From a virus: DNA of 64,000 nt. Both the position numbers and the translations under genes were made by a program. Below, piece after piece: positions 1,408 to 49,758 of this stretch (the stretch's first letter is position 1; each line of letters begins with the position of its first letter). The stretch lies in IMG/VR virus record IMGVR_UViG_3300009177_000032, positions 1-64,000 of that record. The stretch is one strand, 5' to 3'. Under the pieces are notes generated by a model. It did not search any database. It saw only the letters and a list, made by a program, of their open reading frames with translations, and was not told the DNA's origin.

Positions 1408-3739
1408 CTGCTGGATGTGGGGCTCCGGATATTACCTGTGCCAGGGTAGCGATATCCGATTGGTTCTTTTGCGTAGCGTCTGCGAGCGGCTTAATCATCT
1501 TTTGGACTTCAGCCATGACGCCTTGTAACTGCTGCTGAGCTGCCGCCTGCTGCTGTTGCGGACTTGCGCCCGCCGGAGTGACGTCCCTGAGCTGGAAGTC
1601 ACGGTCCAAGCCGGCCAGTTGCGCGATCTGGTTGGCCAGGTCAATCGCCTGCTGTGATCCGATGGCCTGAGCAGTCATCGGATTGGCGAGAAGCTGTTGA
1701 ACGAGCTGAGTCATCACCTGAGCTGTGCCGGCATCGTTCATCCGGTCGTCCCCGTCTCGGGTCGCGGCAATTTCCCAAAGGTCGATCGCCGTTTTCTGCT
1801 TTTTGACGCGGACCCGCCGATGATGATCCCTCTCGTGAAACATCGTGTCATGCTCCGCCCAGGTAAATCCCATGTCCTCGAGGACCTTGCTCGAAAGTGG
1901 GATATCCGTAGCGACGTGGACGTACATGTCATCATCGCCGAAAGCCATTAGCCCGTTGTAGAGCTGCCGTTTCCAGGCGTCCCGATAAATATCCACGGGC
2001 GTGCTCGTGAAAAGCAGCCGCGTGCTTGTGCTCGCCGCGATGTTGCGCACCTCCTCGCGCGTCTGCTCATGGCTGGCGGCCTGTGCTACCTCGTGGCTGC
2101 TCATCACCAGCACCCGCTCGAGGACGTCCAGAATGGTTTTGAGCACATTGATAAGCTCGGCCACGTTGCCCCGCGGGAATGTCGCTGAGTGAACCGCCTC
2201 GGGGATTTTGTTCTGCGCCCGGATGGCCTGTTTGCCGCTGAAGGGGACGATGTTAAGCGCGCGGAAAATCTTCTCACCAAGGTTTTTGATGATGCTCTTG
2301 CCCTCGCTCGTGATCTGGTCCTCGTCGACAAAGGTCAGGTTGGCCAGGTTCTGCTTAGCCGTCATCACGATCTGCGTGAGAATGTTCGAAAACTGGTCTT
2401 GGAAGGGCAGAATTTCGAGGCTCAGTGAGGCGTTGTTTGTCCGCGACTCGTCAGCATCGTAGCCCAGGTAAAGGATCGGGCTGTAAGGGAGCGGCTCGGC
2501 ATACAAAAACGTGGAGATATCGCCGCCGACAACGAAACGGAACCAAACCGGCTCGTCATAGTCGCCTAAGCCGTTCTGCGAAGGGATCAGCTTCTCAAAA
2601 TGGTCAACGGTAAGGACACCCTGGTCGAGGTGATCGGTCCCGTAATAAAGGTAGGCAAGCGCCTTCTCCCGGTCCATGTCCCCAATGCCGGCGCCGGTTT
2701 GAGCCAGGAGCGTATTGCCGTCATTGGTCTTTGTCGGCGTCACGGGAATGTTGAGGGTGCACGCGGAGTAAACCGTGGCAAAAAATGTCCGGTGATCCAC
2801 TACCAGGGAGTTGGGACCTACGCTGATTTGGTCCTTGTTCCAGTAGTTGGAGTTTACGATATCCCGGTAGCGTCGAATGCTCCAGTACCCGCCAAACTCA
2901 CAGCCCGTGTCGTAATTGTAGGTGTAAGGGCCATGGTTAAGGTCGCGGTAAAATCTGGTCGGGTGAGGGTGATGATATCGGAGCCCCTCCTTAATCGTGA
3001 CCTTTATCAGGTCGCCGAGCTTGCAATTCTCTCCGCCTGGGGTCTTGGCCTCGGCTGCGACGTCCTTCTCGTCGGCATGCTTCCATTGCTGCTCGTTGTG
3101 CCAGGACTCTTTTGGAAACTGAAAGCACCAGCCGTAATGGAGCATCTTGAGCACGGCCTGCTTCATCACGTCGTAGTAACCGTACTGGTTACTCATCGTC
3201 TGAATGCGGTCCGTAATTGCCCCGCACTTCAGCCGGTTTACCGCAGTGGCCTTGATCGGGTCGAACTTGAAGAACGGGATCAGCCGGCGGTCGTTCATTA
3301 TTTTCGCCCATCGAATGGTCACGTAAGCGCGAACCAGCGGTACGAAAATGTTGAAGAACATCGGCAAATTGAATGTCTTTTTGCCGGTCGGCTTCCCCGT
3401 GCGCGAGTCGAGCTCCTGATCAATCAGGTGCGTGAGCCCCAGGTCCGAAACCATTCGCTGCACCTCGCCATCGTCGAGTGTGTCGCCGCGTTCGATGAAA
3501 TAGGCCAGGAGGGTAGGACTGATCTGTCGGAAAGGGGTTTCCCACGCGAGGTCCAGGGCGTGATAAATCCGGTAATCTTGAAAGTTGCGGTTCATCCCCT
3601 CCTGAATGCGCGAGCGGATGCGCTGCCAAAGCGCTACGCGGCCCTCGTCCGCTTTCCAAGTAAGCGGATTGCCGGAGAGTTTGGCCTTTAGCGTCTCCTC
3701 GGTGACGCCTTTAGCTGCAAGTATCTTGAGGTCGACCAT
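1364..3739 (-). CDS. Putative portal protein
   Basis: 791 aa, next to terL, Gln-rich helical C-terminus as in podovirus-type portals; position upstream of scaffold-like gene. Confidence 0.65.
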   Translation of the reverse strand: MVDLKILAAKGVTEETLKAKLSGNPLTWKADEGRVALWQRIRSRIQEGMNRNFQDYRIYHALDLAWETPFRQISPTLLAYFIERGDTLDDGEVQRMVSDLGLTHLIDQELDSRTGKPTGKKTFNLPMFFNIFVPLVRAYVTIRWAKIMNDRRLIPFFKFDPIKATAVNRLKCGAITDRIQTMSNQYGYYDVMKQAVLKMLHYGWCFQFPKESWHNEQQWKHADEKDVAAEAKTPGGENCKLGDLIKVTIKEGLRYHHPHPTRFYRDLNHGPYTYNYDTGCEFGGYWSIRRYRDIVNSNYWNKDQISVGPNSLVVDHRTFFATVYSACTLNIPVTPTKTNDGNTLLAQTGAGIGDMDREKALAYLYYGTDHLDQGVLTVDHFEKLIPSQNGLGDYDEPVWFRFVVGGDISTFLYAEPLPYSPILYLGYDADESRTNNASLSLEILPFQDQFSNILTQIVMTAKQNLANLTFVDEDQITSEGKSIIKNLGEKIFRALNIVPFSGKQAIRAQNKIPEAVHSATFPRGNVAELINVLKTILDVLERVLVMSSHEVAQAASHEQTREEVRNIAASTSTRLLFTSTPVDIYRDAWKRQLYNGLMAFGDDDMYVHVATDIPLSSKVLEDMGFTWAEHDTMFHERDHHRRVRVKKQKTAIDLWEIAATRDGDDRMNDAGTAQVMTQLVQQLLANPMTAQAIGSQQAIDLANQIAQLAGLDRDFQLRDVTPAGASPQQQQAAAQQQLQGVMAEVQKMIKPLADATQKNQSDIATLAQVISGAPHPADDSLSTAPLAGSPS

Positions 3740-17173: not shown

Positions 17174-18486
17174 CGAGCCAAAATGGTTAGAGCGCCCTGC
17201 GCATCGTTTGCATCCGACGCCTTAATGTAATCTTCGCTGATATCGATGGACGTGCATCCTCGTCCGAGCTCAACGCATGCCCTGGCTGTCACCATTGTGC
17301 CGCCAAAGGGATCCAGCACCAAGCAAGGCTTTGACTCCCGGTCGCATGTGCATCCAGGGTCCCACCTGAGCGTTTTTCTCTCGCGCATGCCCGCCAGGAT
17401 CCGCCGCTTCACGTCGCTCGCGTTCTGGACCTTGTTGCCGTCGTAATCCTTCTTTGCCTGGCCCTCGTAATTGCCGAGCATGTCGCCGCCGCATTGGCGT
17501 TGATGCTCAATGTCGGGCTCTCCCAATTCGACGATCCGCCGGCGAGGAGCTCCGCACTCCATACAGCAACCTCCCTCGGAGGTGCACGCCTCGATTAGCG
17601 GCCGTACTATCGATTTTGGGTAGCTCGCGAAATGGTTGATCGTAGTCCCCTTCGGGTTGACTACCAGGGCCAGCGGGTCGCCGTCCTCATCGCCGAGGAG
17701 CCCCTCCCACGACTGCATGAACAAATCCGTATTACGGAAATTACGGCGCGTGACCAGATAATCGCTTGTTGCATCCTGGAAGGAAGGGTTTTGCTTTACC
17801 CCGATTTGAGCCAGGGCGGCCTTGGGATTGGTCCGGCGCCTCCGTCGGTTATTGTCGTGAGTCTGTCGAGTCGGGAAAACTGCCGCGCGTGGGTGAGTGT
17901 TGTCTGACGCCCGGACCGTAACCGCGTCCCGGTCGTAGTAGTAGTATCGGCCTTTTGTGAACATGAAAAAGTACTCGAGCGCGTTGACGGGTCGGTCCTT
18001 AACGCTCTCCGGCATGCAATTTCGTTTGATCCATGGGCACATCGAGCGGAGGATCCACCCGCCTTGCTGCAAATCCATGGCAACCCTCTGCGGCAGTAGG
18101 AGCATTTCCTTAGGCTTCAGTCCAAGGGGGTCGGCTGGCCGGAACACGCCATTTGACGGGTGATCCTCGTCTCGGCCAAGGCGGGATCCCTCGGGATCAT
18201 ACATGCGTCTGGTGCCGGCGGTGTACCGGTCGCCCAGGTTGATCCACAAAACGCCATCGTCACGGAGTACCCGCCACACCTCGGTAAAGACTTCCCGAAT
18301 GTGGAGAATATAAAGCTCGAGGGTTTTCTCAGTTCCGATTTCCTTGCTCTTGTCGGGGTGCCCCGCCGGCAGGTATGAGCGCAAACCCCAGTAGGGCGGG
18401 CTCGTGACGCAAAGGTGAAAGGACTTTTCGGGGAGCGTCTTTAGGACGGCCCTGGCATCGCCCTGAATTTTTTGAGGGATGATCAC
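17170..18486 (-). CDS. DNA N4-cytosine/N6-adenine methyltransferase (beta class)
   Basis: TSPPYW motif IV, VLRDDGVLWINLGD, HFASYP, VLDPFGG motif I near C-terminus. Confidence 0.88.
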   Translation of the reverse strand: MIIPQKIQGDARAVLKTLPEKSFHLCVTSPPYWGLRSYLPAGHPDKSKEIGTEKTLELYILHIREVFTEVWRVLRDDGVLWINLGDRYTAGTRRMYDPEGSRLGRDEDHPSNGVFRPADPLGLKPKEMLLLPQRVAMDLQQGGWILRSMCPWIKRNCMPESVKDRPVNALEYFFMFTKGRYYYYDRDAVTVRASDNTHPRAAVFPTRQTHDNNRRRRRTNPKAALAQIGVKQNPSFQDATSDYLVTRRNFRNTDLFMQSWEGLLGDEDGDPLALVVNPKGTTINHFASYPKSIVRPLIEACTSEGGCCMECGAPRRRIVELGEPDIEHQRQCGGDMLGNYEGQAKKDYDGNKVQNASDVKRRILAGMRERKTLRWDPGCTCDRESKPCLVLDPFGGTMVTARACVELGRGCTSIDISEDYIKASDANDAQGALTILAR

Positions 18487-18492
18487 GATGCT

Positions 18493-18696
18493 TTACGTCA
18501 GTAACCTGCTGTAAAACCTGTGGCGCCGATAATCAGTAGCACAGCGGATCGCGCCACGGGCGCATCGTTGGCCGCAGTCCACACAGATCGGCCTTTTCTT
18601 CAGCCTCTGCTTAATCTGGCTGAGGACTTTGAACAGCTTCCAGTTCCTCCGCTTGTGAGCGACGACCATGGCTTCTTTGACTTGGGCTAGAGTCAT
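18493..18696 (-). CDS. Small basic Zn-finger protein
   Basis: CVDCG...RC. Confidence 0.55.
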   Translation of the reverse strand: MTLAQVKEAMVVAHKRRNWKLFKVLSQIKQRLKKRPICVDCGQRCARGAIRCATDYRRHRFYSRLLT

Positions 18697-19074
18697 TTAG
18701 TCGTCCGTTCCAGGCAGATGCTTGCGAAAACCCTCAGGCGCAAATGAGGTGCCGATATACCGAAAGAATCGAGAGCCATATCCTGGCGCCGTGCCCTGCA
18801 TCTGCATTGGACTGGTACCGAGGTGCACGAAGTTATGCCAGTGGATGAGGTCGTCGCTGTATTGCAAGGTCCACACAGCGGGGGTGTTAGTTGGGTAACG
18901 CAGCTCTGGCAAGTTTTTGTGCACCGGGCCGTTTGTGATGTTGGCAGCGTTGAGCGGGCTGAACAGGAGTTTAGGCACCGGCGGAGGTGCGGCTGGACGT
19001 GACGCGACTGCTGCTGGCTTTTGTCCAGCACACGCAGACAGCAACAGTAGGAGGATGCAATCAAACTTTCTCAT
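18697..19074 (-). CDS. Putative lipoprotein
   Basis: Lipobox LLSAC; C-terminal WTLQYSDDLIHW...SRFFR module. Confidence 0.7.
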   Translation of the reverse strand: MRKFDCILLLLLSACAGQKPAAVASRPAAPPPVPKLLFSPLNAANITNGPVHKNLPELRYPTNTPAVWTLQYSDDLIHWHNFVHLGTSPMQMQGTAPGYGSRFFRYIGTSFAPEGFRKHLPGTDD

Positions 19075-19322
19075 TCTCTGGCCCTAGCGCCTGGCAAGGC
19101 GGGCGGGGATGACTGCAATCGCCACTGCAACACCCCATTGGTGCCGCTGTCAGAGCGTTTGATCAAGGTCAGATTTGTGCACAGCATGACTTCTGCAACG
19201 TAGGTGTTGGTTTCGATGACGGCCCGCATGCGAAAGTAATTGCTGCCATTCTCACGCTTGAAGTCTGACGTGTTAACCCAGTTGGTTACGATCAGGGTGA
19301 TCAGGAAAAGGTTGGTGTTCAT
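19071..19322 (-). CDS. Hypothetical protein
   Basis: Start MNTNLFL in ATGA overlap; TN-rich. Confidence 0.55.
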   Translation of the reverse strand: MNTNLFLITLIVTNWVNTSDFKRENGSNYFRMRAVIETNTYVAEVMLCTNLTLIKRSDSGTNGVLQWRLQSSPPALPGARARE

Positions 19323-19516
19323 TGGTAGCCTCCCGCCTCTTGTTCGAGCGTGGCAATCGTTCGCATCAACTCCATTGTGGTGCATGGATAATTACTGAGC
19401 ATTTGCGACAACTCGACTCGGTGCGCGTTGGCGATGCGCTCCAGGTTGCATTCCTTGATTGGTCGATGAGCGCAGCCAGTTGAGGCAGTGAGGAGGAGTA
19501 TGATTAGTTTGTTCAT
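19319..19516 (-). CDS. Small putative lipoprotein
   Basis: MNKLIILLLTASTGC. Confidence 0.55.
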   Translation of the reverse strand: MNKLIILLLTASTGCAHRPIKECNLERIANAHRVELSQMLSNYPCTTMELMRTIATLEQEAGGYQ

Positions 19517-19526
19517 CGGTTGACGA

Positions 19527-19766
19527 TCAGTCGGTTGGGTTCACTCCGTAAATTATGGAGGGGTTGAATTTACGGGAGCAGCCAAACGGTCTGCCGATCA
19601 GGGTTGAAATGGTTTGGCAGGTGCTGCACGGGCGCTCGCTCCATTGGTGAGGGTCGGCCTCTATCAGTTCTAGCGCGGTTTGGCACATTAAGCGAGCGGC
19701 AGCGCGTATTGTAGATTCAAGGACCTTCTCGCTTTCCAGCGACGGGGAGTGATTCTCGTTTGCCAT
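19527..19766 (-). CDS. Cassette ORF 4 (MANENH start), CxxC protein
   Basis: 79 aa; DPHQWSERPCSTC. Confidence 0.7.
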   Translation of the reverse strand: MANENHSPSLESEKVLESTIRAAARLMCQTALELIEADPHQWSERPCSTCQTISTLIGRPFGCSRKFNPSIIYGVNPTD

Positions 19767-19773
19767 AGGTCAG

Positions 19774-20136
19774 TCAGGTGGCGAGCGCGGTGCAGGCTAT
19801 CTTTCTAACTTCCGTTAATCTCGCTCGCAAATCAACCAGACCAAACACTCGAAACGCTGCATCGTCGTTTCCGAGTTGGTCGCATTGCCTCAGAGCCTCA
19901 GCGAGTCGCTCACAGAACACACAGGAAAATTGTTCGCAGCCTTGCGCCACATGCTCATTGTCAACTGGTGGTGCTTTTGTGGGATCATGGCGTCCTGCGA
20001 TCTTCTGACGTATTTCCTCAATGCCATTCCAGAGGTCTCGCCAGTCCTCAACCGTCCAGTCTTTAGCATCTATCGGGATTTTGGATTTCATCTCTTTGAT
20101 CGTGCAAAATTGGTTGAATTGTTCCGATTCACTCAT
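19774..20136 (-). CDS. Hypothetical protein coupled behind a 15-aa MANENQ peptide
   Basis: ATG overlaps TGA of MANENQPPLRKNCYS (20133..20180). Confidence 0.55.
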   Translation of the reverse strand: MSESEQFNQFCTIKEMKSKIPIDAKDWTVEDWRDLWNGIEEIRQKIAGRHDPTKAPPVDNEHVAQGCEQFSCVFCERLAEALRQCDQLGNDDAAFRVFGLVDLRARLTEVRKIACTALAT

Positions 20137-20188
20137 GAGTAGCAATTCTTTCTTAGAGGGGGTTGATTCTCGTTTGCCATAGGTTTAG

Positions 20189-20443
20189 TCAGTTGATAAT
20201 AACGTAGGCGTCCAGCCATTCGAGCGGTGGATCGCCTTCAAAATTCACCCGGCCATCTATGGAAAGCGTGGCAATTTCAGGACACTGAAGGTCCTTGTTA
20301 TCATCACAGGCGGGGCCGAGTATCGCCTCTCTCGTTGCTTTAGCGCGGTCCGCCAGATTGTCGAACACTCGGATGACGGGACTGCCTCCCGCTTCGGCGT
20401 GTTCAATTAGGACGTATTTCAGGGGGTGATTCTCGTTTGCCAT
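20189..20443 (-). CDS. Cassette ORF 2 (MANENH start), hypothetical
   Basis: 84 aa. Confidence 0.7.
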   Translation of the reverse strand: MANENHPLKYVLIEHAEAGGSPVIRVFDNLADRAKATREAILGPACDDNKDLQCPEIATLSIDGRVNFEGDPPLEWLDAYVIIN

Positions 20444-20450
20444 AGGTCAG

Positions 20451-20705
20451 TCAGTCCTTTCCACCAGCCGCATGAAACTCGTTCCACCATGTATTCAATC
20501 GGCAGCTCAGGTTTCCCACTTCTCCATTGGTGATATCAATACTCTCGCGCAACGGGGCTAGAATTTTTTCCGCTGATCGCAATTCAACGCGCCATGTCTC
20601 TAGGCGTTTTTCAGCGTCTTTTTTTCGGGCAATAAGTTCCTGCAACGTGTCACCGTTACGGCAGGCGAAAGTGTTTTTATTCGGGGGTTTATTCTCGTTT
20701 GCCAT
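20451..20705 (-). CDS. Cassette ORF 1 (MANENK start), coiled-coil hypothetical
   Basis: 84 aa. Confidence 0.7.
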   Translation of the reverse strand: MANENKPPNKNTFACRNGDTLQELIARKKDAEKRLETWRVELRSAEKILAPLRESIDITNGEVGNLSCRLNTWWNEFHAAGGKD

Positions 20706-20707
20706 AA

Positions 20708-21181
20708 TTAAAACGGAGGTGGCCCCGTTACAGTCGCTCTATTGTTATCGTTGCCCCCTCTTGACCGGGAGCGCACAGCTCGCTTTTTACTACCAGTTCC
20801 CGGAAGGAGGTCCAACAATCGTCGCACGGCAGTAACGTAGCAATCCGCGAGCGTGGACAAGCAGCCATCCGGATCTCGACGCCGATAGTCTGAAAAACGG
20901 AGCGTAATTGTGACTCGATAAGGGATATAGCCTTTTTCATCCACTCCATGTGCTCCGGCAGCGTGATCGGCCTGGCCATCGCTTTTAGGCCCCGCTTGCG
21001 ATACCAGATCTCCCCTTTGTAGGCCATCACTGTGGCGCTCTTGCTGTCGATCCACGCAAACGCCCGCTTGCCCGTCTTGAAGGATGGGATCGGGCCGATG
21101 CCCTTTAGCTCGAGGATGATTGGGGGCATAGGGCACTCCGTCGATCCAAACAATTCCGCTTGTGTCTTTGTCATAGGGCAT
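20708..21181 (-). CDS. Overlapping ORF, frame B, carrying RusA-like catalytic segment
   Basis: YRVTITLRFSDYRRRDPDGCLSTLADC; ATG 3 nt after upstream stop, stop 2 nt before next ATG. Confidence 0.5.
   Translation of the reverse strand: MPYDKDTSGIVWIDGVPYAPNHPRAKGHRPDPILQDGQAGVCVDRQQERHSDGLQRGDLVSQAGPKSDGQADHAAGAHGVDEKGYIPYRVTITLRFSDYRRRDPDGCLSTLADCYVTAVRRLLDLLPGTGSKKRAVRSRSRGGNDNNRATVTGPPPF
20728..21174 (-). CDS. RusA-like resolvase, frame A (N-terminus and DD/C-terminal strands)
   Basis: ELKGIGPIPSFK...PCDDCW..ELVVK...GATITIERL. Confidence 0.6.
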   Translation of the reverse strand: MTKTQAELFGSTECPMPPIILELKGIGPIPSFKTGKRAFAWIDSKSATVMAYKGEIWYRKRGLKAMARPITLPEHMEWMKKAISLIESQLRSVFQTIGVEIRMAACPRSRIATLLPCDDCWTSFRELVVKSELCAPGQEGATITIERL

Positions 21182-21184
21182 GGC

Positions 21185-21778
21185 TTAACCTGCGCCCATG
21201 GCCCTCAAGCCGGACTCATAGGCAGTTTTGAGCTTAATGAATTCCTCGTGCGTCCCGCCAGCGTCAGGGTGAAGCCTTTTCGAGAGCTGCCGGTAAGACT
21301 CCTGCAGTGTCGTGATGTTGATCTCGTTTGGGTCCCGAAAGCCGAACACCTTCCACCACTCCCGCACCTCCGGCGCAGTCGCCCCGGCCGGCAACTGCTT
21401 AAACCCGGTGAACATCGCCTTGATCATGTGCTTGGCTCCCCATCGTTCCATCCCGCGCATTGCCTCGACCGTCAACGCTATTGCCTGGATGTTGTGAGCG
21501 ATTCTGTTCCAGCGGTCGCAAGGGATGGCCATTTGCGTATTGTCCCACTCGAAGTAGGCGCAAACGCCCGGATCTTTCGGGTTGTCCTGGCCGAGCGCGG
21601 CATTGCTCGAGAGCACGATGCTTTTCGCGCCCATGCGTGCGAGCTCGCGCTTGAGGTTATTGAGGGCGCCTTGAGTGTCCGTCTTGAAGCTGCCCGATTC
21701 CCTGCGGAACGGGTCAGTCTTTGGCCAGCCCGGAGGCCATGCTAGAGGATAGGCGGTCGGTGTTTGGATCGTGCTCAT
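21185..21778 (-). CDS. Phage J-domain protein
   Basis: YPLAWPPGWP N-terminus; C-terminal WWKVFG..YRQLSKRLHPDAGG. Confidence 0.88.
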   Translation of the reverse strand: MSTIQTPTAYPLAWPPGWPKTDPFRRESGSFKTDTQGALNNLKRELARMGAKSIVLSSNAALGQDNPKDPGVCAYFEWDNTQMAIPCDRWNRIAHNIQAIALTVEAMRGMERWGAKHMIKAMFTGFKQLPAGATAPEVREWWKVFGFRDPNEINITTLQESYRQLSKRLHPDAGGTHEEFIKLKTAYESGLRAMGAG

Positions 21779-22304
21779 TGGGATGGTAGTTAGTTATGCG
21801 AAAACTGAGTTTCCGCCCGTTCCTGTAACCGTAAGGATAGAAGGCCACACCCAACGCCTTTACCAGCGTCAGATCGTTTTGCGGTACGTCGAGGACTACA
21901 TAGAGGTGATCGCCTTTGTCCTCGTAAACGACCTTGATAAGCCGGTCGTAAATGAGATTCAGGAATTCACGTATCATCGTCGTGAGCTCTCCGCCGCCTT
22001 CCCATTGCCGGTTTGGCTGAAATGGTTTTCGCTCTGGCTCTGCCTCGCCGCGGAAACTCTCTCGAATCTCGACCTTGACCTCGATGCCAATTCGCCGGCC
22101 CATGCGCTCGGCTACCTGGCGGATCGCCATGATGGTTTTGCCCTGCTTACCGATCATGATTCTCAGGTCCTGGGTTTCGGGCTCGACTGTGACCTCGAGG
22201 AGGTTCGTCGCGAAACGCTCTTTGAAGTTGATCCTATCGGGAGTCGACGAGTAAGACCGGAACAGGGAGATAAGAACCTTCGTTATCGGGTGTTTTTCGT
22301 GCAT
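21714..22304 (-). CDS. KH-domain RNA-binding protein (KhpA-like)
   Basis: EVTVEP..DLRIMIGKQGKTIMAIR with intact GxxG loop. Confidence 0.75.
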   Translation of the reverse strand: MHEKHPITKVLISLFRSYSSTPDRINFKERFATNLLEVTVEPETQDLRIMIGKQGKTIMAIRQVAERMGRRIGIEVKVEIRESFRGEAEPERKPFQPNRQWEGGGELTTMIREFLNLIYDRLIKVVYEDKGDHLYVVLDVPQNDLTLVKALGVAFYPYGYRNGRKLSFRITNYHPNEHDPNTDRLSSSMASGLAKD

Positions 22305-22318
22305 TGCTGGCCGCGGTT

Positions 22319-23761
22319 TTAGTCGTTGTGCCGGCGGTAGTCAAGATGTTCCTGTTCGGGGACGTCCTCATCGCTGATTTTTGCCGTGGCTTCAAACCGC
22401 GTTACCGACTTCCAGAACGTCAGCCCGATTTTCCCCGTCGGTCCGTTCCTCTGCTTGGCCACATCCAGCGCAATGGGCACCACATTGCCGTCCACTTGAT
22501 CCTCGCTCCCCTCTTTGCGCGATAATAGCATTACCGTGTCAGCGTCCTGCTCAAGACTGCCGCTTTCGCGGAGGTCTGCGAGCTGGGGCATCCCCTTACG
22601 GCCATCGATGCCACGCTTGAGTTGCGAAAGCGCGATCACGGGGATGCGCAGCTCCTTACAAAGTGCCTTTAGACCGGCGGAGATTTCCGAGACTTCGCGC
22701 TCCCGGTTATCAGGTCGCTTCCCGTTGATTGAGGCGCTCAGGAGCTGAATGTAATCCACAACAAGCAGCTTAATATCGTGCTGGATGACCATTCTCCGCG
22801 CTCGAGCTCGCAACTCCATAATGCTGAGCCCCGAGACGTCGTCTACAAACAGATGAGAAGCTGCGATCTTGCCGGCAGCTCCGGTGAGCTTGGGAAAATC
22901 GTTCTGCGCCATGAAGCCATCGCGGATGTTCCTTAGGCTGACTCGCGCTCGAGAGCAAAGCATCCTCAACACCAGCGAATCTACCGTCATTTCGAGCGAA
23001 AAGACTCCCACCGGAAGCTGCTGATCGATCGTAACGTGCTCGACAATGTTCATCGCGAGCGAGGTCTTTCCCATGCTCGGGCGAGCGGCCAAAATGTAGT
23101 ACTCCCCTGGCACAAGCCCGCCGGTTAATTTGTCCAAGTCCTGAAAACCGGTCCCCAGTCCGATTAAGGCTCCGGCGCGCGTCAGAAACTCCTCAATCCT
23201 GTCCATTGATTCATGCACAACCTGCCGGATCGGCCTCAGTTGCTGTGCTGCCCCGATCTGGCGGACGTCCATGATATCGCGCTCGACCAAATCCAACGCA
23301 TTGGACGTGTCCGGTTCGTCGTAGAGGCGCGATACCGCCTCGGTACAAGCCACGATCATTTTGCGCCGACGGTAGTGCTCGAGCATCACATCGAGAAACG
23401 TTTCCAATGCGTCCGCAGTTGGCGCCAGATCGGGAAGCTGCCCTATGTAACTCATCCCGCCGACCTGCTCGAGGAGCTGTTTGTCTTTCAGGTAATTCGC
23501 CAGGGTAACCACGTAGAGCTTTACCCCCGCGTTGACGAGTTCCTCCATAGCCATCCAGATCGACCGGTGCCGCATATCGAAGAAAGCCTCAGTCGCGTTC
23601 CTTCCCAATTTCTCGATCACCAGACTCACGCCCTCCGCCGATCTGGTTTCATCAATGAGAATGCAACCGAGGGCTGATTGCTCAGCCTCAATGCTGTGCG
23701 GGGGCAATCGATCGACGGCGGGGGCTTGCCGGCGCTGTCGCCTAAGATCCGGTTCACTCAT
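22319..23761 (-). CDS. dnaB: Replicative DNA helicase
   Basis: PPHSIEAEQS, AARPSMGKT, VVDYIQL, LSQL, DLRESGSLEQDAD, KQRNGPTG. Confidence 0.97.
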   Translation of the reverse strand: MSEPDLRRQRRQAPAVDRLPPHSIEAEQSALGCILIDETRSAEGVSLVIEKLGRNATEAFFDMRHRSIWMAMEELVNAGVKLYVVTLANYLKDKQLLEQVGGMSYIGQLPDLAPTADALETFLDVMLEHYRRRKMIVACTEAVSRLYDEPDTSNALDLVERDIMDVRQIGAAQQLRPIRQVVHESMDRIEEFLTRAGALIGLGTGFQDLDKLTGGLVPGEYYILAARPSMGKTSLAMNIVEHVTIDQQLPVGVFSLEMTVDSLVLRMLCSRARVSLRNIRDGFMAQNDFPKLTGAAGKIAASHLFVDDVSGLSIMELRARARRMVIQHDIKLLVVDYIQLLSASINGKRPDNREREVSEISAGLKALCKELRIPVIALSQLKRGIDGRKGMPQLADLRESGSLEQDADTVMLLSRKEGSEDQVDGNVVPIALDVAKQRNGPTGKIGLTFWKSVTRFEATAKISDEDVPEQEHLDYRRHND

Positions 23762-27231: not shown

Positions 27232-28227
27232 TTATCGGATGAGCCCGTATTTGGTTAGTGTCCACTCCGTAGGAGAGGTTGTGCCAAAGCCGTTGACGAC
27301 CCCCGGGCCGGCATCGTCCCAACTTGGCCAAGCGTTTTCCTTTAGGCATTGGCAATAGCGCTTGAGCGCCATCACATACTTGATCCGACCGATCGCGACG
27401 AAGTTATCGCCTACGGTCCGGCGGGCCTGCTGGAAAGGAAACTCATTTTCCTGAATGACGTGATGAAAAACCCATCTCTCTTGCGGCCGGGATGCGGTGT
27501 AGATATCAATGCTCATTGCCGCCTGGGCGTCGTAGTTCTGCCGGTCGATCACCTTCTGCCACTCATCCGGGCTCGCGTTGCGGGCCGTCTTGAAGTCGGC
27601 CAGGCTGTTTGAAAACTGGCCTTTTATCGACGGGACAATGTCGATCAGGCACTTGAGCGGGACCGCTATCTTTGTCTCGCGGTCGACGTAGGTCGCAATG
27701 CACATGACCTGATATTGCGCATCGGCTGTGAGCGCGCCGATCCAGGCGTCCTCCTTGAGGATTTTAAGGGCCTGGCGCGCGTCCTCGTAATCCGCCCGCC
27801 TGACAATCTGTTTGCCGGCTTTCCTGGCCTCCTTCGTCCACTCCTTCGCCTCTTTGCACAGCGGTTGCCAGGGGACTAAGTCGCCGTCTCGGGCCTCGCC
27901 CTCTTTCACGATCGACATTGTCTTTGTCGCCGTGACCGTCTCAGGCTGAACCGCAAAGTTTCCGTCAAACCGGCCCGAGGGGCACGTAAAGAGAGCGTCC
28001 ATCAGCGTGCCCCATTCGGTCGCGTCGGTATCTTTGAACACGTAGCCGCGGTACCACCGTTGCGGATTTGAGTCGAACAGCATGAGCTCGCTCCGGCTCA
28101 TCACAAAGTTTGGGTCGCCCCGCTTTATGGCGGGGTCCTGGCGGAGGTAAATCTCGGTCGGGACGTCGGTCCCAATGATTTTACCGTCCTCGAGTTTTAC
28201 CGGATCAAAAAAGTCTGAGGCATTCAT
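27232..28227 (-). CDS. PD-(D/E)XK exonuclease, RecE/Exo VIII-like
   Basis: KCLIDIV...LADFKTA...YDAQAAM. Confidence 0.8.
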   Translation of the reverse strand: MNASDFFDPVKLEDGKIIGTDVPTEIYLRQDPAIKRGDPNFVMSRSELMLFDSNPQRWYRGYVFKDTDATEWGTLMDALFTCPSGRFDGNFAVQPETVTATKTMSIVKEGEARDGDLVPWQPLCKEAKEWTKEARKAGKQIVRRADYEDARQALKILKEDAWIGALTADAQYQVMCIATYVDRETKIAVPLKCLIDIVPSIKGQFSNSLADFKTARNASPDEWQKVIDRQNYDAQAAMSIDIYTASRPQERWVFHHVIQENEFPFQQARRTVGDNFVAIGRIKYVMALKRYCQCLKENAWPSWDDAGPGVVNGFGTTSPTEWTLTKYGLIR

Positions 28228-31437: not shown

Positions 31438-32556
31438 ATGTCCGAGCTCTGGAAATTGAAAGGTCGACACCCCGTCCTGTGGACGATCCCAATCTTCGTC
31501 GATTGGATCGAAGCCCACCCCATCCGGGGCCGCTTCTTTCACGCTGTCCCTCTCTCCTCCTTCCAGGAACGCGCCTATCGCGATACCTGCCGGCAGTTCG
31601 CCGATCTCCTCCCTGACCTCCAATGGTCCGTCAAATTAATCGACCTCGAGCGCTACGCCGAAAAATGCGATCCTCAGGACCCCGCCATCCTCTTTTCCTG
31701 GGAACGCCCCCAGCTCGCTCAACAACCGCAATATGCCGACCCCGCCAGGGAGGACCGCGACGAGTTCATCGATGCCCTTTGGCAAACCCCGGGCCACGGC
31801 TGTGTTTCACGCTTCGAGCTCGAGCGCACCTGGCGCCTGTTCTGCGAGCACATGGCCAACTGGCTCATCAACCAAGAGAAGCCCGTCGATTGCTACTTCT
31901 TCAAGCTGCACCTCTCCCCTTACCGCGCCGGCTGGCAAGACCTCCTCCATCACAAGTTTCCGCATCTCGCCGTCAAACTACGCGAGGCTGATTACACCGA
32001 GTTCCGCCGCATCCTCCTGTCTGGCGCCTGGGAAGATCTCGCCTCCCTGGACCTCATCGCCCTGGCCGATGGCACCCTTGTCCGCCGCGTCGAGGTCGAG
32101 CTCAAGGATTCTTGGTACAAACAAGTCAAAAAAGTAGAATACCGCCGCCGCATGATCGACGGCGCCCCCAAATATGCGCAATCCGTCGTGGGCTCAATTC
32201 AACGCTTCATCCTCACTGCCGGCCGTCTCTTGGTTCAATGGTACAAGGACTCTCATCGCCCATCTGGCGCCGATGTTTCGGGCGGGCTACATGGCACTTA
32301 CCGGATGTTGGGCAACCTACCGCGCTATCAACTGCGCCCTAAGCGACGGCTTAAAACCCCTGCTGAAATTGATATCCCTGCCGATATCGCGCCTCCCGCG
32401 CCGGATTTTCTTGGAACGGATGAGCCATTGCCGCCGTTGCCCCTTCTTCAATCCCCACCTCAAGACCTGCGGGACACCGGGCCAACTCCTCCCGACAACC
32501 ACACACCGGGCGGGTTGCTGGTGTTATCTCCCCCTCAAGAACAGAATCCCCTGTAA
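31438..32556 (+). CDS. Hypothetical protein
   Basis: Long ORF with consistent C-ending codons; start MSELWK. Confidence 0.7.
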   Translation: MSELWKLKGRHPVLWTIPIFVDWIEAHPIRGRFFHAVPLSSFQERAYRDTCRQFADLLPDLQWSVKLIDLERYAEKCDPQDPAILFSWERPQLAQQPQYADPAREDRDEFIDALWQTPGHGCVSRFELERTWRLFCEHMANWLINQEKPVDCYFFKLHLSPYRAGWQDLLHHKFPHLAVKLREADYTEFRRILLSGAWEDLASLDLIALADGTLVRRVEVELKDSWYKQVKKVEYRRRMIDGAPKYAQSVVGSIQRFILTAGRLLVQWYKDSHRPSGADVSGGLHGTYRMLGNLPRYQLRPKRRLKTPAEIDIPADIAPPAPDFLGTDEPLPPLPLLQSPPQDLRDTGPTPPDNHTPGGLLVLSPPQEQNPL

Positions 32557-32653
32557 CTGCTGGCTCTACAATTTCACCGATGGAGCCCAAGGCTGGCCCG
32601 ATCATCTCAACTCGACTCCCGTAATCCTCCGCCCTATCAGTATTCTTTTATGA
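32174..32653 (+). CDS. Cys-rich Zn-binding protein overlapping upstream gene (start uncertain)
   Basis: RMSHCRRCP..KTCG..GCWCYLPLK..CNCW; stop overlaps next ATG. Confidence 0.55.
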   Translation: MRNPSWAQFNASSSLPAVSWFNGTRTLIAHLAPMFRAGYMALTGCWATYRAINCALSDGLKPLLKLISLPISRLPRRIFLERMSHCRRCPFFNPHLKTCGTPGQLLPTTTHRAGCWCYLPLKNRIPCNCWLYNFTDGAQGWPDHLNSTPVILRPISILL

Positions 32654-33162
32654 GTGAAATGCCCGTTATCGCCAAACCGCCCACGGTCCCCGTAGCGATC
32701 GAGGAGCCCACTATCACCGATGACGAAGCCTTGGCCGCGATGAAACGCCAGGGATTCGTCGAAATCTCCAATACCGCCCTCCGTGACCTGGCAAACCTCG
32801 GCGCCCACATGCATCAGCTCGGCACTATCCGCATCCAACGCGGTCGCGCGTTAGTCGCCCAAAAGCGGGTCGAGGATGGCATGCGCATTCTCCACGAGGA
32901 ACTCGAGGCCATCTCCAAAGAGGACCGCAAAACCCGGTCCCGCCTGAAAAACATGCTCGCCGTCTCCGAAAAACTCGGCTTTCTTGCCGGCAAACTCACC
33001 GCCGCTCAGGAGCTCATGGTCGTCATGGAGGGAGGCGCCCAACAAATCACAGCCGACGGCATCGCCGATAACGTCGTCCAATCCTTTCGCCCTGGCCAAC
33101 AAGTCAAACCCGCAAACCAGATCGTCGCTCAGGAAGTCCATATCCACCCTAACCCCCGATGA
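32650..33162 (+). CDS. Hypothetical helical protein
   Basis: 170-aa ORF coupled on both sides. Confidence 0.7.
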   Translation: MSEMPVIAKPPTVPVAIEEPTITDDEALAAMKRQGFVEISNTALRDLANLGAHMHQLGTIRIQRGRALVAQKRVEDGMRILHEELEAISKEDRKTRSRLKNMLAVSEKLGFLAGKLTAAQELMVVMEGGAQQITADGIADNVVQSFRPGQQVKPANQIVAQEVHIHPNPR

Positions 33163-33425
33163 CGACCTGCGAACATCCCGACTTCTCCGTCGAGGCCCGC
33201 GTTGCACGCATCGTCGAAACCGAGGACGGCCCCGTCATTGCCTTCCGCCTCGAGCTCTCCGTCCGCTGCCTCCATTGCCAACAACTCTTTGCCTTCCCTG
33301 GTCTGCCTGGCGGACTCACCCCCGATTGCCCTACCGTCTCCGCCGATTGCTGCGAGCTCCGCGCCCCACTCGTCCCCTTCACACCCTTCCTCGAATTCCC
33401 ACGCCCTGCCACAACCCCCCACTAA
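33159..33425 (+). CDS. Hypothetical protein
   Basis: CEHPDF..VRCLHC..FPGLPGG. Confidence 0.65.
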   Translation: MTTCEHPDFSVEARVARIVETEDGPVIAFRLELSVRCLHCQQLFAFPGLPGGLTPDCPTVSADCCELRAPLVPFTPFLEFPRPATTPH

Positions 33426-33428
33426 CCC

Positions 33429-33680
33429 ATGCCCATCACCAAATCCCAATCTCTCCGCGCCCTCAACGAAGTCGTCGCCGAATGCAGAGCCCGCGACGTC
33501 AAAGAAAGCATGGTCCTTAACCGCGGCTGGTTCAGTTTCCTCGACAACAACCCCCATCTCCTCCGCCAGCCCAAACACCGCCACTCCTGCCTCACCGCCT
33601 TCGTCCAAGGCTGGATCAACGGCTCCCTCTCAACACTCATCGACCAAGAACTCACCCGCCAGGAAACCGCCCGCAACTAA
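33429..33680 (+). CDS. Hypothetical protein
   Basis: 83-aa ORF. Confidence 0.55.
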   Translation: MPITKSQSLRALNEVVAECRARDVKESMVLNRGWFSFLDNNPHLLRQPKHRHSCLTAFVQGWINGSLSTLIDQELTRQETARN

Positions 33681-34560
33681 AACTTCTCCCCTCCCCCACC
33701 TTTCTTCGCCTCCTTCAGCGCCACGCCCACCACCACAAAACAAATCCCAACTATCGCTATCGCAAGTGTCATCATAATCCCCGACCCTAGCCATTCCCTC
33801 CCCACCCCCAAATAAGGGATTCACCCCATCAACTTGCGAAATTTCGCATTTTCGAAATCACCCCCTTCAGACTCCAATCAGATTCCAATCAGATTCCACG
33901 TGGAACATCCCCGCTCCCTTCCTGACCCCTCAGGAAACCAACCCAGGAAACCAACACCCCACAACCCCCCCCCGAAAACGGGTTACCCCAAAAACGGGGG
34001 AGGTCACCCTCACCTCACCCAAAAACGGGGGAGGTCTATTTCACCCCCAAAATCACCCCCAAAAATGCTTGCTCCAACTCCCCCAAAAATCATCCATTTT
34101 CCCCAGTAAATCGCGGCTCCCAACACCAGCCCGGCTCCTGCAGATCCCGCCCCAAATTTCACCCCCAAAAATGCTCCCACCTCACCCGTTTTGGGGTGAG
34201 GTCAAAACCCACTTTTTACCCCTTCCCCCCGTACCCCCCTAACCCCCGATACCGTTATTTTGAGTCCCTTCGCACCAAATTTGGGTCCTCCAACCTCCCA
34301 AAAAAACCCTCCAAAAAATACTCAGAGTCCTGCAGAAGGGTATCCCCGGTTTTGGGTCGCGACGGGGGGCCGCCCCGCTCTCCACCCGAGGGGGCTTCGC
34401 CGGCTGGCCAGGTTTCGGCCGGCAAAGTCGCCAGGTTTCGGTCCAGGCTCAACCTCTGGTTGCGACTCAGATCCGGTTTCAGGGTCGAAAATCGATCCGA
34501 GGACAATCGGACGAAGTATCAAACTTGAGCAAATGTGTCCCGTTTCAGGACGGAAACACC
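33681..34560. repeat. C/A-rich non-coding repeat region (candidate origin or genome-end region)
   Basis: cccaaaaacgggggaggtc at 33987 and 34018; several cacccccaaaa; tandem ccaatcagatt and caggaaaccaac; 9-bp inverted repeat 34179..34202; GC skew flips here. Confidence 0.7.
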
Positions 34561-34859
34561 CAAAATGCGCGATCTTGCCTCAGCGCGCGAACCGCATTGA
34601 CGGCTCTTGCGTGAAAGTTTGTTTGGTCGGGACGTGGAGAGATTTGGGCGAACGAGCAAGGGAAGTGGACAGGGAAATACCACCAATAATTTGGGCATCG
34701 GGCGCGCTTTTCGCCTTGGTGGGCGTTGCCAATCGGTCAGCGGTTTGGACTGGCGCGCCTGACGGGCTGTGCTTGCGCTGGTGGCAAAGCGGAGTGCCCT
34801 GACAGGTCAAGGCCGGTGAGCCTTGTAATCGAGCGGTTCAATATTTAACGACCCGTTGC

Positions 34860-35140
34860 AGCCCGTGTGAGAATCTCCGACACGCTGTCAACCCATGGTC
34901 GCGGCTTGTGCCTCGGGAACACGAGCCGGTTTATGTAATCCGAGAGCCAAGCAGTTTCCAGGCTGTTGGCCTATGGGACGGACGGGAAAGGAAATGCCCC
35001 TGGTGTTGCTGCACGAGGGGCGGTGATGAATTGGATGGAACCAACTTCCGGCTTTACGCCAGATTCTGAAGCTCAGTTCCACCCGCGACAGCAATCGCAT
35101 ATATGAGAAAGGCATTACCGCATAACTACGGAGAGGTCAA
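34860..35140 (+). ncRNA. Candidate structured non-coding RNA (unclassified)
   Basis: Hairpins at 34864-34884, 34903-34927, 34946-34970, 34996-35021; G-U pairs favour the plus strand. Confidence 0.4.
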
Positions 35141-42941: not shown

Positions 42942-43732
42942 GACTCTGTTGCTGCGGTTACGTAGCTCCCCCAAAGGTTGGCCATCCGGAGGTATTCCTC
43001 CGCAACATCGCCAAGTTCAAGCCAAAGACCGATCTGATCCTTTACTCTGAGCATCCCTGGCCCGACACGTTCCGGTTGAAGGCGAGCCCGGAGGTGTTCC
43101 GGCCCATGACGTTCCCCGACGGGAAGCCTAACAAGTTCTGCATGCAAAACGGCGCCTTCTTTACCGGTGCCAAGATTGCACGCGATCGAGGTTACACCCA
43201 CATGATTACCCTCGAGGATGACGTCCGTGTAGGGCGGCCGGACTGGGATCAATATATTTGGAACGAGTATTTTTCGCATGGCAAACCCCTGCTTGCGGCC
43301 GGGACACTGGCAACCTACAACCCCTGCAACTGGAGCCCGGAGGCGAGCAAGTTGTGGGCGGAGCTCCTGCGCGTGAACACCCGGAAGAATTTCCCGATTG
43401 CTACCTACGGTTGGCTCGGCGCGGGGATAAAGGGCAAGACCGCGGTGTTCCCTAATGGAGCCCTGGCTATCTACGATCTAAACTGGTTGGGCAAATTCTT
43501 CGACCTGACCAACACCCAAGCGACGGCCACGTCTCACGACGCATGGGACTTTGCGATCGGATTCAAGATTTGGGACACGTTCGAGGAAATGTCCTATGAC
43601 CTTGTGGCCAACCTGCACACAGTCGGCTCATGGTATCGGGACCTGGTGACCGATGAGGAGGAGCGCAAGCGGATGCTGGTAGACGGGGAGGTTTGCGCCG
43701 TGCATCACATAAAGACAGATTGGGAGCCATGA
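42938..43732 (+). CDS. Glycosyltransferase-like protein (GT-A fold)
   Basis: YTHMITLEDDV, NGALAIY, AWD, AVHHIK. Confidence 0.55.
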   Translation: MRLCCCGYVAPPKVGHPEVFLRNIAKFKPKTDLILYSEHPWPDTFRLKASPEVFRPMTFPDGKPNKFCMQNGAFFTGAKIARDRGYTHMITLEDDVRVGRPDWDQYIWNEYFSHGKPLLAAGTLATYNPCNWSPEASKLWAELLRVNTRKNFPIATYGWLGAGIKGKTAVFPNGALAIYDLNWLGKFFDLTNTQATATSHDAWDFAIGFKIWDTFEEMSYDLVANLHTVGSWYRDLVTDEEERKRMLVDGEVCAVHHIKTDWEP

Positions 43733-44715
43733 ACTATTTCGAGCAATACAACCCTGGCGAGTGCAAGGGAATAACGCCGGATATCCGGCTCAAGGAAGCG
43801 GTGGAGCTCGCGCTCGAATTTTTTGAACAGAAGCCGCTAGGCCAGCCCTACAAAGAGGGCCAGAGACGGATCATTGGCGAGCTTGTGAAAGTTTACGGCC
43901 CCAGGAAGCTGGTCAAAGAGATTGACCGCGAAGCGCTGGTCAAGCTGGTGAGGGTGTATCAGGCGCGCAACGTCGAGGTGTATAATCAGCTCATTCACAT
44001 TAAGCGCTTTTTCGAACTCATGCGCCAGGAGGGCGTCATCAACATTAACCCGGTGCAATACCGGCGCCTCCCCTTCACGATCCGGCCCTACGCGGTGAAA
44101 CCGATAATCAGCGAGGAGCAGTACCGCCGATTGTTGAGCGCCAGTATGTCGCCGGATTTTACCGAGGGTTGGCCGATTGTGATTATGGGGGCGTGGGAAA
44201 CCGGGCTCCGCGGCTGCGACATAGCTACGCTCCAATGGGACGCATGCGAGGACGGCAGCTACGTGGACTTCGTCAATGAGATGATTGTGACTCGCCCTTC
44301 CAAAATGCGGAGGAGGAAACAGCGATTGGAAATACCGATCGCTGGCGAGTACCTCGAGGCGTTGTGCGAGCTGCAGCAATCGAGGGGAGACAGCAAGTTT
44401 GTGACACCCTGGCTTGCCCATAAGTTTAATTTCGGGACCCGTCCCTCGCATTTTTGGGATGAGTTCAAAAAGATTGCCGTCCGGTGCGGCATGGACGCCT
44501 ACACGTTCCACTGTTTCCGGCATAGCTTTGTGACACGGTGCCTCCGAGCTGGGGTAAGCCCGGTAGTGATTGGGAGCCTGACGGGCCAGAGCCTGAAGAT
44601 GATCCAGCACTATAGCCGAGTCGATAACAGCGATAAGATTAGCGCGCTGGATGCCATTCGAAAGGCAACCCACGCCGAGCAGGTTAAACGCCTCGGGTAT
44701 CAGCCCCCCGTCTAA
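43729..44715 (+). CDS. Tyrosine recombinase/integrase
   Basis: ETGLRGCDI (R), K, HCFRHSF (HxxR), TGQS, IQHY (Y). Confidence 0.9.
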   Translation: MNYFEQYNPGECKGITPDIRLKEAVELALEFFEQKPLGQPYKEGQRRIIGELVKVYGPRKLVKEIDREALVKLVRVYQARNVEVYNQLIHIKRFFELMRQEGVININPVQYRRLPFTIRPYAVKPIISEEQYRRLLSASMSPDFTEGWPIVIMGAWETGLRGCDIATLQWDACEDGSYVDFVNEMIVTRPSKMRRRKQRLEIPIAGEYLEALCELQQSRGDSKFVTPWLAHKFNFGTRPSHFWDEFKKIAVRCGMDAYTFHCFRHSFVTRCLRAGVSPVVIGSLTGQSLKMIQHYSRVDNSDKISALDAIRKATHAEQVKRLGYQPPV

Positions 44716-49147: not shown

Positions 49148-49758
49148 ACAAAACCGCTGAATTCGTGAACATCGCCCGCAAGCTGGATATCGACCCGCTA
49201 GTGATTTATGACCTCGGGTCATTCGATGCCGCTCAGGCGGTGGAGCTCGCCATTGCTTTCCCCAAAGCTCGAGTCGTTGCGCTCGAGGCCGACCCCTACA
49301 ACATCCCGAAGTGCCTGGTCAATGCGAAGGGCCATCGAAATATCACTATCGTCAATGGTGCCCTGGCTCCGCTCGGCACTCGTCCGCTCATCCACTTCAA
49401 CCGCTCAGTCGGCACAAACGACCAATGCGGGAGCCTCTTGGTGCCGACGGACCTCAAGGATATGCCGGTCGAGTGTATTGTGGTGCCGGCCGTGACAGCC
49501 GCGGACCTCGACAGCTTCTTCGGCTTGCCAACTTTGCTCTGGATGGACGTCCAAGGATCCGAATGGAACTATTTCCTGGGTTTTCCCTTCCGTCCGCGGC
49601 TTGTGTGGTTAGAGGTCGCCTATGACCCCTACTACCACGACCAGCCGCATAAGGATGAGCTCGTCCGCAAGATGGCCGATATTGGTTACAAGCCAATCTT
49701 TGAGGAGGTCGGGGTCCCCGGTAGATGGGGAGACGTCTGTTTTTGGCTTGGGTACTAA
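49144..49758 (+). CDS. FkbM family methyltransferase
   Basis: IYDLGS, ALEADP, LLWMDVQGSE, WLEV. Confidence 0.88.
   Translation: MNKTAEFVNIARKLDIDPLVIYDLGSFDAAQAVELAIAFPKARVVALEADPYNIPKCLVNAKGHRNITIVNGALAPLGTRPLIHFNRSVGTNDQCGSLLVPTDLKDMPVECIVVPAVTAADLDSFFGLPTLLWMDVQGSEWNYFLGFPFRPRLVWLEVAYDPYYHDQPHKDELVRKMADIGYKPIFEEVGVPGRWGDVCFWLGY

Follow-up and report, generated by a model that had tools for sequence, protein, structure and literature searches.

A stop-start junction repeated at the head of unrelated small phage genes, and its probable second role as a recombination homology patch

We analysed the first 64,000 nucleotides (referred to here as the window) of the virus record IMGVR_UViG_3300009177_000032, a soil phage that we call G000 and whose full record of 78,672 bp is rated 100% complete by CheckV. 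On the minus strand of the window, four small open reading frames (ORFs) in succession begin at copies of one repeat of about 33 nt, which closes the upstream ORF and opens the next with the codons for MANEN. We think it probable that this repeat is a standard stop-start adaptor that heads each gene of a small, hypervariable array of accessory genes, and that it also provides a patch of homology for recombination. This reading rests on the repeat itself, on cargo genes that are unrelated to each other, on a precise insertion or deletion (indel) of a single cassette, on homologues of the cargos that are missing the leader, and on the presence of the module in otherwise unrelated phage backbones. 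An earlier note on this stretch had drawn attention to the locus, and its description was correct in every detail that we checked.

Results

One junction at four gene starts

The 15-nt core of the repeat, ATGGCAAACGAGAAT, occurs on the minus strand in four exact copies (19752-19766, 20166-20180, 20429-20443 and 20691-20705), and a fifth exact copy is absent from the rest of the 78,672-bp genome. Shuffled sequence gave a mean of 0.16 matches to this core with two mismatches permitted, and four or more matches in 0 of 100 shuffles. A repeat search of the locus returned one family of 33 nt with spacings of 414, 263 and 262 bp. The whole repeat reads (A)CTGAC(TGA)CCT, followed by the core and then by MAMYCCC (Table 1). 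Junction copies 2-4 have the 20-mer CCTATGGCAAACGAGAATCA in common, and on its 5' side lies TGACTGA or TGACTAAA, the first TGA of which is the stop codon of the upstream ORF. The sequence CTGACTGACC holds two TGAs in different frames, and every upstream ORF stops at one or the other, so that the next ATG follows 3 or 7 nt after each stop. The GC content of the array block is 47-53% compared to 55-60% in its flanks, a dip that is modest but real and that the earlier note had also seen.

Table 1. Coordinates of the MANEN array and its immediate surroundings, given as positions in the window
Feature	Position	Strand	Description
Junction copy 1, head of array	20684..20716	-	upstream half replaced by TTTTAATT; K-type leader MANENKP from the ATG
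Junction copy 2	20422..20454	-	CTGACTGACCT + ATGGCAAACGAGAAT + CACCCCC; first TGA is the A84 stop codon
Junction copy 3	20159..20191	-	CTGACTAAACCT + core + CAACCCC; TGA is the B84 stop codon
Junction copy 4	19745..19777	-	CTGACTGACCT + core + CACTCCC; first TGA is the C120 stop codon
Cassette A, A84	20451..20705	-	84 aa, starts MANENKPP; predicted helical; no known family
Cassette B, B84	20189..20443	-	84 aa, starts MANENHPL; ORFan
Cassette C, leader ORF	20133..20180	-	15 codons (MANENQPPLRKNCYS); stop overlaps the C120 ATG as ATGA
Cassette C, cargo C120	19774..20136	-	120 aa, own ATG; N-terminal DWTVEDW helix, widespread small-protein family
Cassette D, D79	19527..19766	-	79 aa, starts MANENHSP; no known family; ends in GACTGATCG
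65-aa lipoprotein-like gene	19319..19516	-	no MANEN; between array and anchor gene; absent in G001
83-aa anchor gene (MNTNLF...)	19071..19322	-	3' of the MANEN array in all three backbones, 81-98% aa identity
Hairpin, 7 bp and weak T-run	20712..20729	-	between the 148-aa gene and the first cassette; terminator-like

The array is also found in assemblies of other runs. Contigs from four other public soil or root sequencing runs are letter-for-letter the same as the window where we compared them (18600-21400), and single contigs span the junctions at 19745-19777, 20159-20191 and 20684-20716; the junction at 20422-20454 is unbridged in the other runs, and unitigs break there. As identical contigs from other runs bridge three of the four junctions, misassembly of the array, which the earlier note had named as something that would overturn its account, is unlikely.

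The same junction in other phages

Exact-pattern scans for the junction covered IMG/VR, the JGI metagenomes and the GTDB genomes, and they found junction arrays in just two further backbones. The first, G001 (IMGVR_UViG_3300010401_000040), is a 56.5-kb genome with terminal repeats that is rated complete, and it carries cassettes E83 and F98. The second, P3, consists of three identical contigs from one soil project and carries cassettes G71 and H87. The known total is thereby eight different cargos in four array versions, so that the variation in cargo among relatives for which the earlier note had proposed to look does exist. Further hits (L005, L007, L016, L019 and L033-L050) were rejected as arrays; they are lone chance or unrelated occurrences, including sites inside a DNA polymerase gene and ordinary starts of large proteins that are preceded by a Shine-Dalgarno (SD) sequence. 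Seven of the eight MANEN ORFs stay open for 71-98 codons past the fixed ATG and end exactly in the next adaptor, which is far from chance, as a random frame has a probability of only about 3% of being open for 71 codons.

Alignment of the eight junctions from the three backbones gave 16 invariant bases (T followed by ATGGCAAACGAGAAT), the 16-nt core TATGGCAAACGAGAAT, within 29-33 nt that are near-identical. For example, all 29/29 bases compared in junction copy 2 recur in junctions of L018 and L014. The arrays of the window and of G001 both open with a junction of a 'K-type', and these two resemble each other for about 20 bases further, with 15 of 21 additional bases shared. Between arrays, DNA homology is limited to the adaptor (29/29 to 32/33 identity) and to the adjoining anchor gene, which has 82-88% nucleotide identity. 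At the four synonymous sites within the MANEN codons there are no changes across the eight copies, and the non-coding CTGAC..CCT is likewise conserved. When we scanned IMG/VR with every synonymous spelling of MANEN permitted, only the exact spelling was found, and within each genome the adaptor sequence is restricted to these gene starts.

The backbones that carry these arrays have little else in common. A whole-genome comparison of G000 and G001 found only the adaptor, the anchor gene and the C-terminus of a tail-fibre-like protein. P3 has a longer downstream flank in common with the window, and its DnaB is only 47% identical and inverted; the DnaB of G000 itself is less than 40% identical to that of any cultured phage. 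Two more distant syntenic relatives of the window, L010 and L029, have other small genes, none with MANEN, in the interval between the replication genes and the methylase, and this difference in gene content marks the interval as a hyperplastic region.

The last ~125 residues of the tail-fibre-like proteins are 88% identical between G000 (66139-69789 of the full record, outside the window) and G001 (32376-34940). This likeness, judged from the sequences, looks like an exchange of receptor-binding domains and points to a shared host. Tail fibres with matching ends usually indicate that their phages bind one receptor, which makes co-infection by G000- and G001-type phages plausible.

Gain or loss of a cassette at the repeat

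The contig L015 is 94-98% identical to G001 (L014) on both sides of the array and differs from it by the absence of exactly the 259-bp E83 cassette. Its junction consists of the upstream flank of G001 copy 1 joined to the downstream sequence of copy 2, which places the crossover inside TGACCTATGGCAAACGAGAAT. L015 and L014 show that a single cassette has been gained or lost in nature at the repeat, which bears out the proposal of the earlier note that the repeat doubles as a recombination junction and a ready-made module of stop and start. The cassette changes that we saw were presence or absence and complete replacement only. In one sequencing run, X5, short unitigs of 33 and 61 nt break at the repeats, which is at most a weak hint of alternative flanks.

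Cargo proteins

Past about 8 residues there is no pairwise similarity among the eight cargos (BLASTP after an 8-residue trim, best E 0.14), and identity between cassettes falls from 100% to random within a few bases. No Pfam family was found for any of the eight, and E83 is the sole cargo with a PHROG, which offers nothing usable on function. No relatives of B84 or G71 exist among 5.8 billion protein clusters, in which B84 matched itself only, and searches of the ESM Atlas did not help with D79 or A84. The two cargos with wider families are E83 and C120. For E83 there are 25 homologue clusters (54-79% identity). They all start within 0-6 residues of the conserved core, and none of them has the MANEN-led extension of 11-16 residues that is unique to E83; in eight other IMG/VR phages, the gene of this family has its own SD and start. 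The family of C120 consists of small, helical proteins that share a DWTxEDW motif, and 0 of 50 representative homologues begin with MANEN; its AlphaFold model consists of simple helices (predicted local distance difference test score, pLDDT, 77). The earlier note had suggested that cargo homologues be checked for MANEN, and in both families they are without it. Because of this, we regard the leader as a graft onto genes that are normally without MANEN, carried in frame by E83 and as a separate, coupled mini-ORF ahead of C120.

C120 itself looks like a composite. Residues 13-60 find their match in a widespread family of proteins of 52-118 aa (DWTxEDW...IAxRH), and residues 73-120 in segments of different, longer proteins (P0039 and P0072).

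These results bear directly on whether the cassettes might be tandem paralogues that diverged fast and kept only the start of their founder or, failing that, an artefact of assembly. Two of the ORFs are both 84 aa long and the units are similar in size, which fits such an origin. However, a search with a hidden Markov model (HMM) of the E83 family gave no match to the other cargos (all E 0.6 or worse), so that neither pairwise nor profile comparison finds any similarity beyond the shared start, and E83 and C120 fall in two different widespread families without MANEN. Together with the abrupt drop in identity at the edge of the repeat and the identical contigs of other runs across three of the four junctions, this makes an origin by divergence or misassembly extremely unlikely, and we reject the paralogues that the earlier note had listed among the findings that would refute it.

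MANEN could instead be an N-terminal peptide tag for packaging, export, processing or degradation, modelled on the capsid targeting sequence (CTS) of T-even phages, and the earlier note had offered this as its alternative. Seven of the eight cargos are in frame with the leader, and diverse T-even defence proteins have only an N-terminal targeting sequence in common (PMC3012670). Against a tag stand the leader of cassette C, which stops after 15 codons and leaves C120 to its own ATG, the four synonymous sites that are identical in 8/8 copies, and the conservation of the untranslated CTGAC..CCT. Five residues would also be very short for a targeting signal, and the array lies in a replication or early operon, away from the head genes. 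As conservation is at the nucleotide level, includes non-coding bases and extends to a leader that is detached from its cargo, we consider a peptide tag very unlikely.

With regard to function, the small size of the cargos, their position in an early or replication operon and their ORFan character are typical of genes for host takeover or anti-defence, and by this analogy such a role is probable for them.

Signals and enzymes at the junction

No inverted repeat, dyad symmetry or attC-like hairpin was found in or beside the junction, in agreement with the earlier note as regards hairpins, and the eight junctions have no predicted RNA structure in common. A promoter scan of 18400-22400 found no sigma-70-like early promoter at any junction, although the promoter type of the host may differ. 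The repeat contains no terminator-like match; the sole hairpin lies upstream of copy 1, outside the repeat, and terminator-like matches such as this one are no commoner here than in shuffled sequence. The adaptor, which spans the ATG and 5-11 codons, has no SD (no GGAG or AGGA). An SD-like motif occurs at only 15 of the 83 ORF starts of the phage, which indicates that a coupled start without an SD is normal for it; most of the well-defined starts are without an SD, and their leaders are rich in A and C and poor in G, as in ACAAACCAATCC ahead of one ATG. The pattern of these leaders suggests a host with SD-independent initiation.

The conservation of the adaptor could also be explained if it were mainly a cis-regulatory site in mRNA or DNA that is bound by a factor and co-regulates translation of the array, with recombination only a by-product. 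The factor, from phage or host, might be comparable to a T4 RegA-like repressor, or it might be the KhpA-like KH-domain protein (21714-22304), whose gene is the third upstream of the array. Of all readings this one best explains the fixed bases, since every base, the non-coding part included, is kept across diverged phages, and the restriction of the sequence to these gene starts in each genome agrees with it. The start-associated repeats of Cluster K mycobacteriophages, to which we return below, have been interpreted in this way (PMC3203893). However, apart from the anchor gene and the tail-fibre end, the window phage and G001 have no gene in common, so that a common factor would have to be the 83-aa anchor protein or come from the host; the junctions also have no conserved RNA structure, and regulation alone does not account for all the cargos being different. 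We regard a mainly regulatory site as unlikely.

A further explanation is an integron-like platform in which a dedicated recombinase moves cassettes at the repeat, either the tyrosine recombinase of the window (43693-44715) or an unrecognised enzyme; the earlier note had put forward such a platform, with this recombinase or a RecE/Sak4-like pair as candidate catalysts. The array does resemble repeat-bounded cassettes, one cassette indel falls exactly at the repeat, and the window encodes both a protein with a Phage_integrase match (44107-44625, the only one in G000) and a RecE-like exonuclease (27232-28227, phrog_412). Yet the complete phage G001 has the same junctions, and its close relative has the indel variant, while G001 has no Phage_integrase match and no RecE-like gene. 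The integrase of the window lies 23 kb from the array and looks like an ordinary lysogeny enzyme, and the junction has neither inverted repeats nor a hairpin. With nothing pointing to site-specific recombination, we consider a dedicated recombinase at the repeat highly improbable, and the catalysts proposed for it are unsupported.

Neighbouring genes

The array sits within a long leftward operon, with all genes on the minus strand. The order is C5 methylase, DnaB, KH-domain protein, J-domain-like protein, a 148-aa protein, the MANEN array, the 65-aa lipoprotein-like gene, the 83-aa anchor gene, two small genes and an N6/N4 methylase. In the gene immediately upstream of the array (20708-21181) there are two long overlapping frames on the same strand, of 157 and 148 aa, and the homologue in L010 has the same pair. 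A RusA-like identity for this gene was rejected, as neither reading frame has a RusA match in Pfam or PHROGs.

At the other end of the array, GACTGATCG at the end of D79 is a possible half junction that is also present at the end of the P3 array. This 9-mer is present three times in G000, and for this reason it is weak evidence for a shared array end. In place of the 65-aa lipoprotein-like gene of the window, P3 carries an unrelated gene of 75 aa; both precede the anchor gene and both begin with ATGAA(C/T)AAA. The context TCAACCGATGAAC precedes the 65-aa gene in the window (19516) and the anchor gene in P3 (L018:8947-8975), and it may be a second, weaker breakpoint in a start region. Far from the array, the window also contains a minus-strand ORF of 4,323 aa (49755-62726).

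An unrelated phage, L028 (IMGVR_UViG_3300050026_000261, 2979-3414), has a stop-start junction of its own, GGGG(A/G)(T/C)GGAGTAGATG, composed of an SD, a TAG and an ATG. It is present in four copies, two of which reach 26 nt, and it heads consecutive genes of about 68 aa at spacings of 207 and 202 bp; one gene in this array belongs to the E83 family. Arrays of small genes may more widely make use of standard junctions, each phage having a sequence of its own.

Discussion

How could a repeat of this kind serve both the expression and the exchange of the genes that it heads? At the level of mRNA, the adaptor would end the upstream frame, with TGA offered in two of the three frames, and translation would restart 3-7 nt further on, at an ATG without an SD and followed by A-rich codons, so that the five fixed codons of MANEN would form part of a termination-reinitiation unit suited to an SD-poor host. 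At the level of DNA, the ~30 identical bases, the sole homology between cassettes and between arrays, would act as a crossover patch. Inside it, copy-choice or homologous recombination, either unequal or between phages, would delete, add or replace whole cassettes, and every crossover inside the adaptor would regenerate a correct junction of stop and start. On the other side of the array, the 250-bp anchor gene would be a second patch of homology. A new cargo would come to be expressed either by fusion in frame behind the leader, as E83 may have been, or by translational coupling to a short leader ORF, as appears to be the case for C120. The array and the anchor gene would then move as a mosaic module between phages of the same host, with recombination carried out by general functions of the host or phage and with no dedicated site-specific enzyme. 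The arrangement may persist for the very reason that any crossover in the adaptor restores a correct junction. Both the translational coupling and the recombination pathway are what we infer from the arrangement of the sequence.

Several observations weigh against this explanation. Among the arrays found, no cassette occurs in two different arrays or positions, and shuffling proper can therefore only be deduced from replacement and a single indel; of the variable cargo and variable order that the earlier note had anticipated, the first was found, while no cassette was seen to differ in its order between arrays. The indel is no proof that exchange is a selected function, as any direct repeat of 30 bp can give deletions. 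No joints of deletions or circles were present in the contigs of the four other runs, and contigs cannot reveal rare forms. The predicted accessibility of the junctions (0.46-0.69) is nothing special when set against other gene starts (0.58 +/- 0.17). Furthermore, dependence on homology alone leaves the identity of every base unexplained.

A further reading goes beyond an inert patch of homology: the adaptor could be a portable standard for both expression and exchange of accessory genes, recognised by a trans-acting host factor or by the 83-aa anchor protein, which would license translation of the cassettes or promote their exchange. We consider such recognition quite unlikely. If it were true, the array would represent recombinase-independent, integron-like gene capture common to unrelated phages of one host, and new, even de novo, ORFs would be expressed simply by landing behind five fixed codons.

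The stop-start adaptor and homology patch that we favour has its closest parallel in the promoter-early stem-loops (PeSLs) of T4-type phages. Each of these elements is ~100 bp long, reaches as far as the start codon and combines a sigma-70 promoter, a terminator stem-loop and an SD (Arbiol et al. 2010, PMC2839356; Comeau et al. 2014, PMC4122927). They are proposed to be patches for homologous recombination by which a gene takes its expression signals with it, and no dedicated recombinase takes part (PMC2839356; PMC4122927). Excised mini-circles, formed where neighbouring repeats recombine, count as a further mark of this system. Like PeSLs, the MANEN adaptor flanks ORFans in a hyperplastic region, and in both systems the indels or replacements between relatives are bounded by the repeat. 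Unlike them, it is only ~30 nt long, has no promoter, hairpin or SD, and would act at translation by stop and restart; it also runs 5-11 codons into the gene, thereby giving unrelated proteins one N-terminus, and it lies in a tight tandem array.

The start-associated sequence and extended start-associated sequence (SAS/ESAS) of Cluster K mycobacteriophages make a second parallel. With its AGGAG SD core, the SAS takes up 13 bp and is placed 3-7 bp ahead of the start codon (Pope et al. 2011, PMC3203893); its 10-19 sites are scattered over half the genome, stay outside the coding sequence and have not been tied to cassette indels (PMC3203893). It resembles the MANEN adaptor in being short, asymmetric and always in one orientation, and in marking the translation starts of non-structural genes that belong to different families. 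Diverged phages have kept it too, and at some sites the stop codon of the preceding gene falls within it. The SD core and the end 3-7 bp before the start are features of the SAS, whereas the MANEN adaptor is without an SD and spans the ATG.

The remaining two comparisons are more distant. Small proteins that are otherwise unrelated and have only a short N-terminus in common are also known from the T-even CTS, which works as a peptide and is cleaved off by the prohead protease (PMC3012670); MANEN differs in being conserved at the nucleotide level, untranslated bases included, and in having one cargo detached from its leader. The likeness to integrons lies in small, promoterless, unrelated genes in tandem, each bounded by a repeat, with content that differs between carriers. 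The MANEN array is, however, without attC hairpins, an adjacent IntI or attI/Pc, one of its carriers is without any tyrosine recombinase, and its repeat is at the 5' end of the gene and part of the coding sequence.

Hypervariable regions of phages are full of small ORFans, many of which prove to be anti-defence or host-takeover factors, and there is only a partial understanding of how phages acquire genes of this kind and bring them to expression. The 16-nt core can be used as a handle for fishing cassettes of accessory genes out of soil viromes. The locus described here is a clean natural example of one junction that would solve both gain and expression, in a phage that largely does without SD sequences. 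It would extend the idea behind PeSLs and the SAS from signals of transcription and ribosome binding to a stop-restart-leader unit inside the coding sequence, one that is seen across unrelated phages and that includes an explicit case of a leader grafted onto a family otherwise without it.

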